Virus record (IMG/VR): IMGVR_UViG_2671180637_000025 | Location: 1-40,163 of that record | DNA length: 40,163 bases | Source of the DNA: a virus | Lineage: Duplodnaviria > Heunggongvirae > Uroviricota > Caudoviricetes | Reading direction: 5' to 3' (one strand) | Shown: positions 5,332 through 36,978 of the stretch, piece by piece | Position numbering within the stretch: the stretch's first letter is position 1 | Layout of the letters: each line of letters opens with the position of its first letter | Program-made: the position numbers and the translations under genes | The notes under the pieces: model-generated | Seen by the model: only the letters and a program-made list of their open reading frames with translations | Database searches by the model: none | What the model was told of the DNA's origin: nothing

Positions 5332-5916
5332 TTATTGTTTGTTTTTTTCGTTCTGGCTGATGACAAATTCAATGTAACTTTCGATCTTTGCCTTCTCTGT
5401 TTCAGGTAACAATGCGTAGCGCGAGCGGTCATAGTTGATGGTCGCAGGGTCGTGCGGGTGAATCAGTAATTCATAGCCGTGACGCCCGAATGCGGATGCA
5501 ACATTCTCCAGGGTGGAAATGGAAACGCTGACCTCATTGTTTAACAGGCGGCTGATTGTCACCTGGGCGACGCCGGATGCGCGGTGAAGTTTTCCCTGCG
5601 TTGAAAGGTCGCGGCTTTCGCTCATCCAGCGTTCCAGGTTGTGAGCCGCCAGTTGACCAATGTCGCTTGGTCCGACAGGCTGAAAACCTTCCTGAGAAAG
5701 CGAGCGATCGATATCAAGCCAGTTACGGGGTTTATTGGCGGCAGCTTCAATTTTTCGCGCAACCTGGTCGCCGATAACCTTCTTGCCAAGAGCCCAGCGG
5801 TTTACCAGATTTGCCTGAGTTCCAAGTTTTTCTGCCATCCGCGTCTGAACACCATTGAATTCACGGTCGATCAAGTCGTTGAGATTTTGCCTGCGGACGT
5901 CCTGGATACTTTTCAT
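5332..5916 (-). CDS. Immunity repressor (CI analogue) with two HTH domains and no LexA/S24-type autocleavage domain
   Basis: 194 aa; divergent from the Cro-like gene across a three-operator region; XRE-like HTHs (MAEKLGTQANLVNRWALGKK and ASGVAQVTISRLLNNEVSVSISTL); no peptidase-like C-terminus. Confidence 0.75.
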   Translation of the reverse strand: MKSIQDVRRQNLNDLIDREFNGVQTRMAEKLGTQANLVNRWALGKKVIGDQVARKIEAAANKPRNWLDIDRSLSQEGFQPVGPSDIGQLAAHNLERWMSESRDLSTQGKLHRASGVAQVTISRLLNNEVSVSISTLENVASAFGRHGYELLIHPHDPATINYDRSRYALLPETEKAKIESYIEFVISQNEKNKQ

Positions 5917-14896: not shown

Positions 14897-15078
14897 CTTA
14901 AAAAAATGCCCGGACGAACTGGAAGCAATGAGTTATGCCTTCCGTGGCTGTACTGGTTTACAGCATGAAGTCATCGCAATGGCGTCCTGCTGTAAAAAGG
15001 GCGGTGATAGTCCTTCAAGGGAAACCATCACCGCCAAGCACCTGGAACTTCTGGCATCACGGTCCTTAGGCGTGATTC

Positions 15079-15155
15079 TGGCGTGGCATGCAGGATTCGA
15101 ACCTGCGACCAACCGCTTAGAAGGCGGTTGCTCTGTCCAACTGAGCTAATGCCAC
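15079..15155 (-). tRNA. tRNA-Arg (anticodon UCU), argU-like, phage-internal
   Basis: 77 nt GTGGCATTAGCTCAGTTGGACAGAGCAACCGCCTTCTAAGCGGTTGGTCGCAGGTTCGAATCCTGCATGCCACGCCA; perfect 7-bp acceptor stem, D stem GCTC/GAGC, anticodon stem ACCGC/GCGGT with loop CTTCTAA, T stem GCAGG/CCTGC with loop TTCGAAT, encoded CCA. Confidence 0.85.
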
Positions 15156-32315: not shown

Positions 32316-32340
32316 CACAAAAAAGCCCGCGGCGCGGGCT
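32316..32340 (-). terminator. Intrinsic terminator closing the two-gene minus-strand operon
   Basis: Stem AGCCCGC / GCGGGCT overlapping the stop codon, T-run on the minus strand. Confidence 0.55.
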
Positions 32341-32717
32341 TAATTAACTTCGAGGATAATAGAATCTTTAGACTTGAATCCCACTTTCCTCATGGCTGTA
32401 ATGACGTTTTGGATAATCCACGTTTTCCCAAACTCTCTTTCGTGTACAATGGCGCAAGGAAAATGAAGGGCGCTTTTGTTGCACTTTATGGTGAAAGTTG
32501 TACCTTCGGCAAAATCCAAAACAGTCTGCAGATGTGCAGATATAAACGATTTAAACACATCTTCAAGCTCAGCAAGAGTAATTGGCGGTTTGTTCCTCTC
32601 GTCGTTCAGGCGTTCATATGCTGCATGAAATGAAAAGTGAATTCTTGCCGCATCTTCTTGCAAGATCTCGTTAATCTCATCCTCAAGATCAATGAGTTGT
32701 TGTTCTGTTATAGACAT
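32340..32717 (-). CDS. Hypothetical protein (125 aa), distal gene of the island operon
   Basis: Overlaps the proximal gene by 10 nt; AT-rich; no recognisable motif. Confidence 0.5.
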   Translation of the reverse strand: MSITEQQLIDLEDEINEILQEDAARIHFSFHAAYERLNDERNKPPITLAELEDVFKSFISAHLQTVLDFAEGTTFTIKCNKSALHFPCAIVHEREFGKTWIIQNVITAMRKVGFKSKDSIILEVN

Positions 32718-32926
32718 AGATAACGGGAGGTCGCCTCACTTATTTTTTGATTTAATTCATCATCATTGGATGCACGTACAGTAGCAACATGCTTACTTTG
32801 GCGTAGGGTCCCAATTCTGATATCAAATTCTTCATTATCGAAAGAGTCAACGAAAACAGCTTTACCAGTTTCTGGATGGTAAAAAGAGGCATAGTTTTGG
32901 TTGAGTTGCATATCAAATTTAAACAT
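32708..32926 (-). CDS. Hypothetical protein (72 aa), proximal gene of the island operon
   Basis: Strong RBS GGGAGG before ATG 32926; operator-like site and TTGATT -35 upstream. Confidence 0.5.
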   Translation of the reverse strand: MFKFDMQLNQNYASFYHPETGKAVFVDSFDNEEFDIRIGTLRQSKHVATVRASNDDELNQKISEATSRYLCL

Positions 32927-33043
32927 ATCATCCTCCCATACGGGAACAGACGTGACTTACATACGGTGTGATTTTGACTAGTTAACTTTCTGCAGCAAAA
33001 CCATCACGGTAACTACAAACTAAAATGTTACAAATCAACTTTC

Positions 33044-33058
33044 TTACCTTTGGGGTAA
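33044..33058. promoter_or_regulatory. Operator-like site TTACCTTTGGGGTAA upstream of the island operon
   Basis: Perfect TTACC-N5-GGTAA about 120 bp upstream of ATG 32926; a degenerate copy at 33003..33017. Confidence 0.5.
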
Positions 33059-33123
33059 TAGTACGCTATTCACCTGCAATCTGTACAGAATTATTTAAAG
33101 GCACATCCCTGTGCCGCCGCCCG

Positions 33124-33810
33124 TCAGAAGAACCATGCCTTGTCGTTGATGTACTCCGCGTGCGTCTGGATATCACGCAGGCATTTGCTCACACCGACGA
33201 TGTAGCAGAACATGGTGGTCAGTTCCGCCGCCGCGCCCGATACATCATGCCCGTCGTCCTGCAACTGGTTTAGCAGATTCATCAGCAGTGAGTTCTCCGT
33301 CAGGCCGAGAACACCAGACGGCGAGTGAATCAGGCTACGGTAGCCTGGCTTCAGTGGGGCACTGTAGGTTTTGTTCTCTATCTTCATTGCCTGCATCACT
33401 GCTGATGCTGTGGCGTTGGCTACCTGGTCGGCAACCATCTTTATGCGTTCTTCCTGCGGGAGCGAGTTTTTAATGTAACTTCCGGTGCGGCGGATCTGAG
33501 GAAGAACCTCACCTGTAACCCATTTACGAAAGCGGTAGGGGATAGTGCCTGGTGTCACTGCGTCGCGGCAGCGGAGGATCAGTGTGTAGAGGCCTGACTC
33601 GTTGATAATATTGGTTTCGCCTTGACGGCCTAAGTTAAATTTAGCCCTTTCATCATCATCAAGAGATTTTATTGACATAGTGGGGTTTGTCAGTTGAAGA
33701 GCTTTAATAACGTCTTTGGCAACAAACCAAGGATTTCCATCAATAACAATGGCTCGAATGGTTGCTTCTGATTCAAAATGAAAAACAGATGGGGTTACGT
33801 TAGCAGTCAT
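33124..33810 (-). CDS. Antirepressor, Bro-N-type N-terminal domain plus C-terminal domain shared with the neighbouring small ORF
   Basis: Start at ATG 33810 behind AGGTGA (track extension to 33963 runs through a terminator); Bro-N signature VFHFESEATIRAIVIDGNPWFVAKDV. Confidence 0.7.
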   Translation of the reverse strand: MTANVTPSVFHFESEATIRAIVIDGNPWFVAKDVIKALQLTNPTMSIKSLDDDERAKFNLGRQGETNIINESGLYTLILRCRDAVTPGTIPYRFRKWVTGEVLPQIRRTGSYIKNSLPQEERIKMVADQVANATASAVMQAMKIENKTYSAPLKPGYRSLIHSPSGVLGLTENSLLMNLLNQLQDDGHDVSGAAAELTTMFCYIVGVSKCLRDIQTHAEYINDKAWFF

Positions 33811-33962
33811 AGTGATCACCTTTGTAGTTAGGTTAATCACCACTACCGACGCCAATCGGTTGGTGGTGAACTGTGCAGGGTTGGCGTAACCGGCTACAAA
33901 GGACCCGGCGCACCTTTCGGTGCCCCCACACAGCCCACCATAGAATAGGTGCGCTTTACACA

Positions 33963-33982
33963 TAAAAAAACCGCTTATGCGG
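33963..33982 (-). terminator. Intrinsic terminator between the two antirepressor genes
   Basis: Stem CCGC / GCGG with loop ATAA followed by eight T on the minus strand. Confidence 0.55.
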
Positions 33983-34076
33983 CATATGTGCCTCTGTAGT
34001 AATCCGGGACGCCAATCCCGGCACTGGATTTTGCCAGTGCCCGATTACTATGGCACAAGAGGAGTGCGATGTAAAT

Positions 34077-34091
34077 TTACCGTAAAGGTAA
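34077..34091. promoter_or_regulatory. Operator-like site TTACCGTAAAGGTAA upstream of the Bro-N antirepressor gene
   Basis: Perfect TTACC-N5-GGTAA. Confidence 0.5.
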
Positions 34092-34122
34092 ATATAAGCA
34101 CTCCTCTTGGTAATTTCAAATC

Positions 34123-34380
34123 TTATCTGGTTTGTTTTCGTAATTGTTCGGCACAATAGTCGAGATGTGTTTGCAGATCCCGCATAGACATCTGTGAGCT
34201 GGTGACGTAGTTAATCAGTGCAGTCAGTTCGGCAAGTGGGCCATCGACATTAAATCCATCCTTATCGAGATCCAGGAGTAATTTCATCAAGTGCGATCCC
34301 TCCACTAGTGATCTGACGCCTCCCGGCGTGTGAATCCTTTCGGTAAATCCGTCTTCCAGTGGATAGTGATACTGCTGCAT
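34123..34380 (-). CDS. Small antirepressor-domain protein (85 aa), SOS-regulated candidate
   Basis: Start at ATG 34380 behind GGAGAAG (track extension to 34503 would cross the LexA box and operator); by-eye ~40-45% identity to the C-terminal ~80 aa of the adjacent antirepressor. Confidence 0.55.
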   Translation of the reverse strand: MQQYHYPLEDGFTERIHTPGGVRSLVEGSHLMKLLLDLDKDGFNVDGPLAELTALINYVTSSQMSMRDLQTHLDYCAEQLRKQTR

Positions 34381-34399
34381 CTTATCTTCTCCATGCAAT

Positions 34400-34419
34400 A
34401 ACTGTATATTTATACAGTA
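34400..34419. promoter_or_regulatory. LexA (SOS) box AACTGTATATTTATACAGTA
   Basis: 19/20 match to the recalled consensus TACTGTATATATATACAGTA; 20 bp upstream of ATG 34380 on the minus strand. Confidence 0.8.
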
Positions 34420-34456
34420 GCAAATAATTTGTTTGCTATCCAGCACGTTTTGCAAA

Positions 34457-34471
34457 TTACCCGAAAGGTAA
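34457..34471. promoter_or_regulatory. Operator-like site TTACCCGAAAGGTAA in the divergent region between small antirepressor gene and tailspike
   Basis: Perfect TTACC-N5-GGTAA; GGTAA half-site also at 34517..34521. Confidence 0.5.
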
Positions 34472-34575
34472 TATCTGTTCGTATTTATAGGTTGTCTATC
34501 CATATGTGGTTTTTCGGGTAATAGAATAACCGGATATGCGGCGCAACGGGTGCTGCGACTATCTGGAGAATTAAC

Positions 34576-36978
34576 ATGACAGTCTCAACCGAAATCAGCC
34601 ACAATGAGTATCTCGGGAATGGAGTCACGACATCATTCCCATATACTTTCAGAATTTTTAAAGACACAGATCTTGATGTAAGCACAATAACCGCTGACGG
34701 TCTTGTTTCTCCAATGATCCTGGGGACAGATTACATGGTTACAGGTGCTGGCTTATCTTCCGGTGGAAGCGTTATTACGTCATCTCCTGTTTTGCCAGGC
34801 ATTACAATATCAATCACTCGTAACCTTCCAGCAGTGCAGGAAACTGATTTAAGAAATCAGGGGAAATTTTTTGCAGAGGTCCATGAGGATGCATTCGACT
34901 ACCTGACCATGCTTATTCAGCATGCGATGTTCAACATCGGTGCTCTTCAGAGAAATACGCTTAGGGTTCCTGAAAACAGTGTAAACCTGGTGCCAAAGGT
35001 ATCAAGTCGCCGGAATATGATTTTTGGCTGGGATGACAGTGGGCAGCCTATAGCCATTCTCCCTCCGAGTGCTTCTGCCAGTGAAGTGCTGATTCTTCTT
35101 GCTCAGCCTGACGGATGGAAAAAGATCGGTGGCGTGGATAAATTTGAGCCGATACCAATCACCGTTATGCCATCTTACAATCAATCAAACGTTGTTGCAG
35201 CATGGGTGGAGAGTGTAAATCTCTATGGCTATGTTTATTTCCCTTGCCACTCTGCAACAAAGAAAACTTATACAATACCAGGAACGGCCTCACAGGCAGG
35301 AAATCTGCAAAACTCCCGTGTAATCGTTGATAAAAACGTCATTCTTAAATTCGACAGCGATCTTTACTCGCTTTATAAGTCGCTGAAGTTTGAAGGTGAA
35401 TGCACTTTTGAGTTTTCCCATCTTAATTTCACAACAACCGGTGGAGAGGTGGATTACCTGGCTAAGCAGGCTATCCTCAACCGAAACCCTATTCGCATGA
35501 AGCGAGTGGAATGGTCAGATTGTAAAGTTTATTCCATAAATGGTGACACGTTCTTCTATGAAGGTGAAGTCACCATATCCTCAGATAGCGCAGCTATCTT
35601 CCCCTTAACTACTGACCGTACAACAGGCCTGTTCGCACCAATAGATATTGGAGAGCATATTTCTGCACATATTCGTATGGAGTCTCAGGCCGCCTCAGAA
35701 GTTGGGATTGTTCTGCGATGCTCTGGTGGTTGGATGATGTTCTATGGGGCACCAGGTGCTACACAGTGGTCTTATAGACAGAAACCAATTGGTGGTCCAG
35801 TAGCAGAAGGAACTCCATTCCCGCTGCCAGGAGGTTTACTGTCGTACGCCCCGGGCAAAGCAACCGTTGGCGTATCACTGCAAGGTAAAAACTGGGCGCA
35901 GATAACGATGAATGGCGTTGGGATACGTTTGCCCTTTGATACTGCTGATGTAGGGGATGTATACGAAGTTGGGTTTGTTGCACTGACCACGGCATCTGGA
36001 GGTTCTGCGCGTGTAACTGGATTATGCAGCTACACCTCTGATAATGGCGTGCACGGTAAGCCTCCACTTAATATCCTTATCCACGGTGATAGTACAGCTG
36101 AGGATTTCATTTCCGCGTTCAGCTCGTACATTCCGCAATTAATGGATGGAGCGAACGGCCACCGTTCATATAGCATTGTAAACAAGGCGGTTGCCGGACA
36201 GACAATGAGGCAACAGTTAGATCTCCTGAAGGCTCAGGGGCCGGGTGATGCTTACATCGTTATTATGGTTGCCGGAACTAACGAAGGGCAGGCAAACCAA
36301 AACGGCGATTATATGGCGGCACTGATAGATGAGTTTGTCTTATATTGCAATGGCCTTGGTCGTATCCCTGTTTGGGTTGAGCCGTGGATGTGGTATAGCC
36401 AATCATTTATTGGAGGGGCTGGCCAGCCATCTTCTAACTACGACGGTGTCGCAGAGTTGCGAGAAGCTGGTAAACGCCAGATGATGAAATATGGCAATAA
36501 CGTCATTTGTGTAACAACAACTCACCAGCTCCCGGCCCCATATCCAGAGTATTTCAACACGCAATACGACCCACTTCTGCGTGATGACATTCACCAAAGC
36601 CAGTTAGGGTATCGTCTGTATGCGGAAATTATCTGCTCTGCCATTATCGACTGGTGGTCGCGTGTTGATTACACGCCAAGAGCAGCTGTTCAATGGTGGG
36701 CTGGAACAAACGTAACAGTACAGGAACCGTCAAGTTTAACTGCCAATTCAATTAATATTAAACTGGCAGCCACTTCATTTGCGAATGGCAATACTGTTCT
36801 AACGCTTCCGAGGTGGTGCAGACCAAAAGTAACCAAAAATGTCCCTGTACTGTTCACTGCTGATGGCGTTTCATTTGGCATGGCAATGGCCACCATTAAC
36901 GCTTCAACAGGACAAATATCGATTGATGGGTCCACAACTACATCTCCAACGTTCTACATAGATGCGACATGGGCGTGA
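34576..36978 (+). CDS. Tailspike/tail fibre with T7 gp17-like N-terminal anchor and C-terminal SGNH/GDSL esterase domain
   Basis: 800 aa; N-terminus EYLGNGVTTSFPYTFRIF; SGNH blocks ILIHGDSTAE, MVAGTNEG, RDDIHQS. Confidence 0.8.
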   Translation: MTVSTEISHNEYLGNGVTTSFPYTFRIFKDTDLDVSTITADGLVSPMILGTDYMVTGAGLSSGGSVITSSPVLPGITISITRNLPAVQETDLRNQGKFFAEVHEDAFDYLTMLIQHAMFNIGALQRNTLRVPENSVNLVPKVSSRRNMIFGWDDSGQPIAILPPSASASEVLILLAQPDGWKKIGGVDKFEPIPITVMPSYNQSNVVAAWVESVNLYGYVYFPCHSATKKTYTIPGTASQAGNLQNSRVIVDKNVILKFDSDLYSLYKSLKFEGECTFEFSHLNFTTTGGEVDYLAKQAILNRNPIRMKRVEWSDCKVYSINGDTFFYEGEVTISSDSAAIFPLTTDRTTGLFAPIDIGEHISAHIRMESQAASEVGIVLRCSGGWMMFYGAPGATQWSYRQKPIGGPVAEGTPFPLPGGLLSYAPGKATVGVSLQGKNWAQITMNGVGIRLPFDTADVGDVYEVGFVALTTASGGSARVTGLCSYTSDNGVHGKPPLNILIHGDSTAEDFISAFSSYIPQLMDGANGHRSYSIVNKAVAGQTMRQQLDLLKAQGPGDAYIVIMVAGTNEGQANQNGDYMAALIDEFVLYCNGLGRIPVWVEPWMWYSQSFIGGAGQPSSNYDGVAELREAGKRQMMKYGNNVICVTTTHQLPAPYPEYFNTQYDPLLRDDIHQSQLGYRLYAEIICSAIIDWWSRVDYTPRAAVQWWAGTNVTVQEPSSLTANSINIKLAATSFANGNTVLTLPRWCRPKVTKNVPVLFTADGVSFGMAMATINASTGQISIDGSTTTSPTFYIDATWA

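Follow-up and report, generated by a model that had tools for sequence, protein, structure and literature searches.

Small antirepressors under the control of the host LexA protein are known from Gifsy-1 and Gifsy-3, Fels-2, coliphage 186 (Tum) and N15 (AntC), that is, in siphovirus and myovirus backgrounds. The immI operon of phages P1 and P7 contains the c4 antisense RNA, icd and ant, in this order; its promoter is controlled by C1 at the operator Op51, and the small antirepressor Coi is found alongside. In phage P22, the immI region with ant, arc, mnt and the sar RNA adjoins the tailspike gene; the C2 repressor is RecA-cleavable, and ant is not under LexA control. Here we analyze an antirepressor locus in a DNA stretch of 40,163 nucleotides from a tailed virus of the class Caudoviricetes (IMG/VR virus record IMGVR_UViG_2671180637_000025, hence termed the window), which is a phiV10/epsilon15-like (Uetakevirus) temperate podovirus or its prophage. 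The window encodes an immunity repressor (Rep), a small antirepressor of 85 amino acids (Ant), and a protein of 228 amino acids in which a Bro-N domain is followed by an Ant-like C-terminal domain (Bro-N::Ant).

The nearest relative of the small antirepressor system is found in the Salmonella phage SPC32H, an epsilon15-like podovirus, whose Rep and Ant are solved together in the PDB entry 5D50; 5D4Z is a further entry for this system. Kim & Ryu 2013 and Kim et al. 2016 are said to have shown that SPC32H Rep is not cleaved in the SOS response and is inactivated by the small Ant, that LexA represses ant by way of a site within reach of the promoter, which it overlaps, and that a point mutation in this site makes the sibling phage SPC32N constitutively lytic. 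According to a secondary description, the DNA-bound form of Rep is a tetramer, which is broken when an Ant tetramer engages two Rep dimers (PMC9638917). Another precedent is the isrK-orf45-anrP region of Gifsy-1, where a leaky isrK terminator allows read-through to a structured region followed by an antirepressor-like gene. The middle of isrK pairs in cis with the downstream RNA, translated orf45 couples to anrP, and IsrK activates translation in trans (PMC4825925).

The locus in the window very probably combines two layers of control, an SPC32H-type Rep/Ant switch and a Bro-N::Ant antirepressor gated in the manner of P1 immI and Gifsy-1 IsrK. The first layer is proposed by homology to the experimentally solved SPC32H system, and the second is predicted from RNA family models and covariation. 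The two paralogs would differ in their control, with LexA acting on the small Ant, and the C4/IsrK antisense RNA together with Rep acting on Bro-N::Ant. The order on the minus strand across 32340..34575 is an intergenic region, the 85-amino-acid gene, about 310 nucleotides of non-coding sequence, the 228-amino-acid gene, two small open reading frames (ORFs) and a strong terminator. The intergenic region at the 5' side of ant is common with the divergent tailspike gene (34576..36978, plus strand), and the module is placed between the late virion genes and this gene. An earlier note, made from the sequence of the window, had treated both paralogs as one SOS unit, which has to be abandoned because the Bro-N gene has its own promoters, a putative Rep operator and an isrK/C4 antisense-RNA gate. 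The LexA/Ant/Rep switch itself is already known, isrK and C4 belong to RNA families that are already curated, and published phages have nearly the same sequence: the locus is 93-97% identical to those of the phiV10-group Escherichia phages Phi05_1387 B, TL-2011b, vB_EcoP_ZX5 (ZX5) and phiV10. No description of two paralogs under different controls within one locus was found in the searchable literature.

The 85-amino-acid protein matches chain E of PDB 5D50, the 'Anti-repressor protein' of SPC32H (phmmer, E=1.6e-45, residues 2-84 with 3-85), and is 85.5% identical to the product of the SPC32H gene annotated 'ant: anti-repressor protein' (tblastn). It falls in phrog_450, listed with 'unknown function', and most of the database entries are named hypothetical protein. 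No match to Ant was found in Pfam, NCBIfam or PADLOC; a DUF724 match was dismissed, as its score of 17.6 bits is well under the cutoff of 38.4. Homologs of Ant and Rep co-occur across phage records (Ant in 35 and Rep in 36), with matching genus tallies.

In the 228-amino-acid protein, the Bro-N domain (PF02498) proposed in the earlier note was identified at residues 18-104 (E=4.8e-20, 72.4 bits versus a cutoff of 25.6). Residues 147-224 align with residues 2-79 of Ant (BLASTP, E=3e-16) with 32 of the 78 positions identical (41%), which agrees with the 40-45% estimated by eye. The same C-terminal domain (residues 147-223) matches SPC32H Ant, chain 5D50_E, with E=2e-13, and the invariant residues coincide between the small Ants and the fusion C-terminal domains (Y149, P152, I161-H162, P164, G166, and RD-QTH near the end). 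The fusion as a whole matches phrog_130, 'anti-repressor Ant', at 1.2e-55; PADLOC and NCBIfam gave no match for Bro-N::Ant. With the full-length fusion as a query, 7057 related proteins were retrieved, and the best 120 of them are Bro-N proteins of 212-286 amino acids from Escherichia, Salmonella, Shigella, Citrobacter, Enterobacter, Klebsiella and Raoultella. The C-terminal domain alone as a protein query yielded 27 matches and missed the full-length fusions. In the literature searched, we found no description of the C-terminal domain of Bro-N proteins, or of its AntA counterpart, as a homolog of SPC32H Ant.

The composition of the locus was compared in 13 loci from phages of Escherichia, Salmonella, Enterobacter and Klebsiella. 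The isrK and C4 module is present in eight of them, and the whole module is missing in SPC32H, epsilon15, BUCT554, BUCT711 and PAS61, which carry the small ant alone. In phiv142-3 (locus L013, 3076..3732), an AntA domain (PF08346) replaces Bro-N at the N-terminus, and the Ant-like C-terminal domain is kept, again behind isrK/C4. The 'anti-immunity protein' p23 of phiV10 (locus L002, 1607..2191, minus strand; 194 amino acids) is a Bro-N::Ant fusion cut short where a frameshift interrupts the Ant-like domain, and p22 (30 amino acids), located downstream of p23, is probably a remnant of the fusion. From the Bro-N and AntA variants, the phiV10 frameshift and the phages lacking the module, it follows that the constant element is the C-terminal domain, to which different N-terminal domains can be joined.

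The sole experiment on a Bro-N::Ant protein concerns ORF4 of ZX5, which is 82% identical overall to the fusion in the window and near-identical to it in the C-terminal domain; Rep of ZX5 is 99.5% identical to Rep of the window. Overexpression of ORF4 reduced the prophage titre from 1e9 to 1e6 (~1000-fold) and rep transcripts by 75%, and the adjoining small Ant was not recognised by the ZX5 authors (PMC9782041). From this phenotype and the 41% identity to Ant, we infer that the C-terminal domain of the fusion binds Rep.

This domain could also be aimed at a different target: it could co-assemble with the Ant tetramer and tune or poison it, or hit repressors of other prophages in a Gifsy-style crosstalk. 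Ant is known to act as a tetramer (PMC9638917), so that a paralog with 41% identity could form mixed oligomers, and the higher conservation of Ant compared to Rep (85.5% versus 41.8% identity to SPC32H) hints at a broad target range. However, ORF4 of ZX5 lowered both lysogeny and rep transcripts when overexpressed alone, which fits direct antirepression, and the putative Rep operator on the fusion promoter ties the gene to its own immunity circuit. We thus regard a co-assembling or trans-acting fusion as unlikely and favor Rep of the same phage as the target. The ordering implied in the earlier note, with the Bro-N protein as the true antirepressor and the 85-amino-acid protein as no more than an accessory or a decoy that copies its binding domain, is quite improbable. 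The database names follow that ordering, 'anti-repressor' for the former and 'hypothetical' for the latter, and the reduced lysogeny upon ORF4 overexpression is consistent with it. In contrast, the chain that was crystallised with Rep and named anti-repressor corresponds to the small protein, the five phages listed above carry the small gene only, and phiV10 is a functional temperate phage despite its truncated Bro-N::Ant. The proven antirepressor is therefore the small protein, and the role of the Bro-N protein is less certain.

The non-coding sequence between the two paralogs contains two potential regulatory RNAs. The isrK element matches RF01394 with 76.8 bits (gathering score 50) and overlaps a match to the c4-a1b1 model RF03163, whose 45.1 bits are just under the gathering score of 46.7. 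Its intrinsic terminator (33983..33970 followed by U7) is the terminator that the earlier note had observed between the paralogs. The C4 element covers the full-length model RF01695 with 79.5 bits (gathering score 45). Both RF01695 and RF03163 derive from P1/P7 immI. The a' loop of C4 is complementary to the a2 element in the leader of the Bro-N gene, and the single-stranded b' element is complementary to b2; both are also complementary to the a1 and b1 elements inside isrK. The Shine-Dalgarno (SD) sequence of the Bro-N gene, AGGUGA (33821..33816), is covered by a2. From C4 to the ATG at 33810 there is no separate ORF; the C4 stretch itself is crossed by a single ORF, which extends the Bro-N gene in frame by 51 codons and lacks an SD sequence.

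Covariation was analyzed in six aligned loci. The a and b elements occur there in three variants each, and all three copies of an element change together in each phage; the a elements of C4 in phiv142-3 represent the third covarying variant. The b':b2 helix is 100% paired in the six loci, with compensatory double changes at four of the seven pairs. In the a'/b' set, 94.7% of cells are paired, versus 27-47% in slid controls; 0/500 shuffles attained the observed value, and double changes are seen at six pairs. A single sequence, set one column out of register by MAFFT and fully complementary by eye, accounts for all the unpaired cells. Loop-level analysis was used, as whole-molecule RNAduplex predictions for C4 versus the leaders were uninformative: the C4 stems were unfolded and every combination gave about -35 kcal/mol.

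The motif TTACC-N5-GGTAA is found 10 times in the window, versus 0.02 expected, and 10 times at equivalent places in SPC32H. The sites flank rep, are located in front of early-right genes (as pairs 62 bp apart) and before the terminase and portal genes, and occur in the intergenic region of ant and the tailspike gene. In the GenBank record of epsilon15 the latter site is annotated as 'protein_bind: repressor'; a literature search with the epsilon15 operator string gave no match. The enrichment, the positions and this annotation suggest that Rep binds TTACC-N5-GGTAA. A perfect site is present at the ant-tailspike position in 11 of the 13 loci; phiV10 and TL-2011b have GGTGA in the second half-site. 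The half-sites TTACC and GGTAA are unchanged between the window and SPC32H, Ant being far more conserved than Rep between the two (85.5% versus 41.8%). The operators that the earlier note had described as flanking the antirepressor module are indeed present, at 33044, 34077 and 34457.

The 34077 site is located at two potential promoters of the isrK-C4-Bro-N module. It covers the start site of the upstream promoter, a TTGAAA-17-TATATT arrangement whose geometry is also called in Tyrion, and begins exactly 51 nucleotides before the 5' end of isrK (-51..-37) in 8/8 loci that have the module. The hexamers of the isrK promoter are invariant in the six aligned loci, and transcription from it is predicted to start exactly at nucleotide 1 of the isrK model. 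At the clearest promoters of the window the -10 hexamer abuts an operator. The operator pairs spaced by exactly 62 bp (5198/5260 and 8279/8341 in the window) bracket a promoter, and the downstream operator of a pair abuts the -10 hexamer. Pairs with the identical spacing occur in SPC32H (locus L007, 33604/33666 and 35972/36034); the shared spacing suggests that a single Rep tetramer spans the two operators of a pair. The 34077..34091 operator is enclosed by an inverted repeat of 12 bp without a mismatch, CAAGAGGAGTGC / GCACTCCTCTTG (34109..34098 and 34066..34055). RNA that reads through from ant folds into a long hairpin at this repeat, whose conservation extends to the E. coli phages, and not to Tyrion or the Klebsiella phages.

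In a lysogen, Bro-N::Ant would be doubly locked, by Rep at the level of transcription and by C4 at the level of translation. Transcription from the tandem promoters with their Rep operator would yield isrK, then C4 after read-through of a leaky terminator, and then Bro-N::Ant. Synthesis of the fusion is most likely in the absence of Rep or once its inactivation is under way. The occasion could be infection or superinfection, where it may act in anti-immunity as Ant of P1 or P22 does, or a commitment loop once the small Ant has cleared Rep.

This layout resembles P1/P7 immI in several respects. C4 is co-transcribed with its targets; a' and b' are complementary on the upstream side to a1/b1 and on the downstream side to a2/b2, where a2 is located over a ribosome-binding site. 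An antirepressor gene follows, and the putative Rep operator at the promoter would correspond to the operator that the immI promoter carries for its primary repressor C1, like Rep a non-cleavable repressor with dispersed operators. The joint variation of the a and b elements matches the heteroimmunity logic of P1/P7. In contrast to immI, there is no separate icd, and a2 masks the SD sequence of the antirepressor gene itself; the protein has a Bro-N N-terminal domain and an SPC32H-Ant-type C-terminal domain and is unlike P1 Ant1/2; and the phage is a chromosome-integrated podovirus rather than a plasmid myovirus. Because a2 overlaps the Bro-N SD sequence and there is no separate ORF, the locus would work like immI without being an orthologous operon. 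The likeness to Gifsy-1 consists of an isrK scoring above the Rfam gathering score, an antirepressor-type gene downstream, and a cis pairing between isrK and the C4 region in the minimum free energy fold of the read-through RNA. The difference is that the stretch equivalent to orf45 scores as a C4 RNA in the window. As in P22 immI, the antirepressor module adjoins the tailspike gene in the late region of a podovirus and an antisense RNA is involved; unlike in P22, no Arc/Mnt-type proteins were detected, the two small ORFs downstream, orf72 and orf125, having no matches in Pfam, NCBIfam or PADLOC, models of the ribbon-helix-helix (Arc/Mnt) type included.

The LexA box upstream of ant matches TACTG(TA)5CAGTA at 18 of the 20 positions and has a perfect CTGT-N8-ACAG core. 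It is the sole match in the window at up to three mismatches, and 0/100 shuffles matched; the box reported in the earlier note is therefore real and unique in the window, with a score one position lower than the 19/20 given there. Two other CTGT-N8-ACAG sites, at 14948 and 19490, were not counted as LexA boxes, as the AT-rich centre is missing. The box ends 19 nucleotides before the ant ATG (34380), close to the distance of about 20 noted before, and the SD sequence GGAGAAG is found at 34392..34386. CTGT-N8-ACAG is located 37 nucleotides upstream of the ant ATG in 10 of the 13 loci, and ATGT-N8-ACAG is present in three Klebsiella phages. In the six-locus alignment, the box of the window aligns column for column with that of SPC32H. 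SPC32H and SPC32N have two differences in the 5.2-kb ant locus, one of which turns CTGTATGTTTATACAG into CTGTATGTTTATAAAG, changing ACAG to AAAG inside the homologous box. A conserved CTGGATAG block and a constant 17-nucleotide spacing in the six aligned loci point to a potential ant promoter with its -10 hexamer within the box, so that LexA could bind over the core promoter. There is very little probability that the palindrome is a chance AT-rich repeat, or that it regulates the divergent tailspike gene instead of ant, with which it shares the intergenic region. The distance to the ant ATG is fixed across four host genera, the tailspike -10 hexamer (34522..34527) is about 120 bp away, and both the failure of the shuffles to match and the SPC32N point mutation in the homologous box argue against it.

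Rep matches chain A of PDB 5D50, 'Repressor', with E=4e-42 over residues 1-190, and is 99.5% identical to Rep of phiV10 and ZX5. Its Pfam matches are of the helix-turn-helix (HTH) type only, HTH_3 at residues 106-147 and a weaker YdaS-type HTH at 21-61, and no S24 peptidase match was found in Pfam or NCBIfam, in agreement with the two HTH domains and the missing LexA-like peptidase of the earlier note. RecA-stimulated self-cleavage of Rep as in lambda, which would make the antirepressors irrelevant, is hardly credible, as we found no point in its favour and Rep combines the lack of an S24/LexA-type peptidase domain with full-length homology to the two-domain SPC32H Rep structure.

The first layer is thus proposed to operate as follows. 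In the lysogen, Rep, which would not be RecA-cleavable, holds the scattered TTACC-N5-GGTAA operators, and LexA bound at its box would block ant. DNA damage would remove LexA, so that the 85-amino-acid Ant is made; Ant would then bind Rep and break its DNA-binding tetramer, opening early and late promoters, as was shown in SPC32H and is assumed here by orthology. Prophages of the phiV10-type Uetakevirus group were induced 21-47-fold by a DNA-damaging microcin (bioRxiv 10.64898/2026.05.26.727859). Induction by a LexA-derepressed antirepressor acting on a non-cleavable repressor, the central proposal of the earlier note, is supported by the 5D50 matches, the conserved position of the box and the SPC32N change. 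The Gifsy-type precedent cited there is correct in its logic, a non-cleavable repressor inactivated by a small protein under host LexA as in Gifsy, Fels-2, 186 (Tum) and N15 (AntC); none of the family libraries (Pfam, PHROGs and NCBIfam) links the 85-amino-acid protein to GfoA, GfhA or Tum, and the nearest relative is SPC32H. With SPC32H the window has in common an orthologous Ant, a Rep homologous over the full length, a LexA box at an equal distance from ant, a dispersed TTACC-N5-GGTAA operator set, and the location of ant in an epsilon15-like podovirus genome, flanked by the tailspike gene and the last internal-virion gene. The late-region placement emphasized in the earlier note is real, and it is no novelty, because the closest precedent is itself such a podovirus; this is the normal position of ant in the family, in SPC32H as in epsilon15. 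The two phages differ in Rep (41.8% identity) and in what follows ant, a terminator in SPC32H versus isrK, C4, Bro-N::Ant and two cargo genes, with two extra operators, in the window.

Several observations weigh against the two-layer account. The identity of Rep to SPC32H Rep is just 41.8%. The hexamers of the ant promoter are weak, and a scan with the sigma-70 consensus made no call there. The operators at 34457 and 33044 are located upstream of the -35 hexamer, where a bound protein could repress or activate. The RNA-gated Bro-N::Ant layer is dispensable, because Bro-N::Ant is frameshifted in phiV10 and 5 of the 13 phages have no such module. An AlphaFold2 model of the fusion, built on a 20-sequence alignment, had a mean predicted local distance difference test score (pLDDT) of 55.6, mostly below 50 in the C-terminal domain, and was discarded as too poor for confirming the fold of this domain.

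Neither in the window nor in Tyrion does a terminator separate the ant stop codon from isrK. Transcription of ant upon SOS induction would hence run on to the isrK terminator, and the mRNA would contain a1 and b1. We speculate that a1/b1 of the ant mRNA could titrate C4 and unmask the ribosome-binding site of Bro-N::Ant. Such a sponge could turn a transient SOS pulse into irreversible commitment, in that the loss of Rep to Ant lets the Rep-controlled promoters fire, which yields further antirepressor. The full scheme, in which two antirepressors share a Rep-targeting domain, respond to different sensors and are possibly coupled in cis via the C4 sponge, is a tentative one that we consider possible and far from likely. 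An RNA relay from ant mRNA to C4 was not found described in the literature searched.

Table. Features of the antirepressor locus and the immunity repressor gene in the window.
Feature	Position	Strand	Basis
ant, 85-amino-acid antirepressor, SPC32H Ant ortholog	34123..34380	-	phmmer, tblastn
Bro-N::Ant fusion, 228 amino acids	33124..33810	-	Pfam Bro-N and Ant-like C-terminal domain
rep, 194-amino-acid immunity repressor	5332..5916	-	match to 5D50_A, HTH-only Pfam
LexA (SOS) box AACTGTATATTTATACAGTA upstream of ant	34400..34419	.	2 mismatches to TACTG(TA)5CAGTA
Inferred ant promoter: -35 TGGATA (34442..34437), 17-nucleotide spacer, -10 TACTGT (34419..34414) within LexA box	34414..34442	-	conservation
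Putative Rep operator TTACCCGAAAGGTAA, ant-tailspike intergenic region	34457..34471	.	motif
Imperfect operator TGGTT-N5-GGTAA overlapping tailspike -10 TAGAAT (34522..34527)	34507..34527	+	invariant in six-locus alignment
Upstream promoter of the second module, TTGAAA-17-TATATT, -10 abutting operator	34091..34119	-	scan, 10/12
Putative Rep operator TTACCGTAAAGGTAA at isrK/C4/Bro-N promoters	34077..34091	.	motif
isrK promoter: -35 TTTACA, extended -10 TGcCATAGT, predicted start 34040	34047..34075	-	scan
isrK-like small RNA with a1 (33999..33991) and b1 (34015..34009), intrinsic terminator	33964..34040	-	Rfam RF01394
C4 antisense RNA: a' loop CCUUUGUAG (33902..33894), b' ACGCCAA (33887..33881)	33859..33945	-	Rfam RF01695
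C4 targets in the Bro-N leader: b2 UUGGCGU (33855..33849), a2 CUACAAAGG (33827..33819)	33816..33855	-	sequence, loop-level duplexes
Putative Rep operator upstream of orf72/orf125	33044..33058	.	motif
Promoter-like TTGATT-17-TAGTTA before orf72/orf125	33038..33010	-	by eye, no scan call

The window starts with a tyrosine integrase gene, followed by RecT/YqaJ recombination genes. A tRNA-Arg gene (anticodon TCT; 15079..15155, minus strand) is located between the terminase and portal regions, and SPC32H has a tRNA-Arg gene at the equivalent place. The tailspike protein (800 amino acids) has a weak SGNH/GDSL esterase match at residues 504-681, in its C-terminal part. SPC32H and epsilon15 have other receptor-binding modules, and conservation is seen in the N-terminal adaptor and in the regulatory region upstream of the gene. 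On the tailspike strand of SPC32H, the scan calls TTCATA-17-TAGAAT.

The cargo ORFs on the minus strand, orf72 (32926..32708) and orf125 (32717..32340), belong to phrog_14630 and phrog_14518, respectively, both listed with unknown function, and are followed by a terminator (32341..32323). In related prophages the cargo slot is filled differently, e.g. by a YafO toxin or a DUF2335 protein. An Rfam match to Leu_leader at 32319..32394 (25.8 bits versus a gathering score of 50) was set aside as chance. Public assemblies often call longer ORFs in the locus, one of 279 amino acids (33124..33963) extending over the C4 RNA and one of 126-127 amino acids (34123..34503) extending over the LexA box; both are probably over-extensions.

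Because neither Pfam nor NCBIfam offers a model for the SPC32H Ant domain and PHROGs lists it with 'unknown function', hundreds of enterobacterial prophages would carry the actual SOS-sensing gene under the label 'hypothetical'. Recognition of the Ant domain as the C-terminus of widespread Bro-N and AntA 'antirepressors' would give these fusions a defined target-binding domain together with a solved structural template. The locus would place a protein input (LexA) and an RNA input (C4/IsrK) on two versions of one effector domain. As such it may offer a compact natural model in which to study why a temperate phage maintains one antirepressor for 'induction' and another for 'anti-immunity'.

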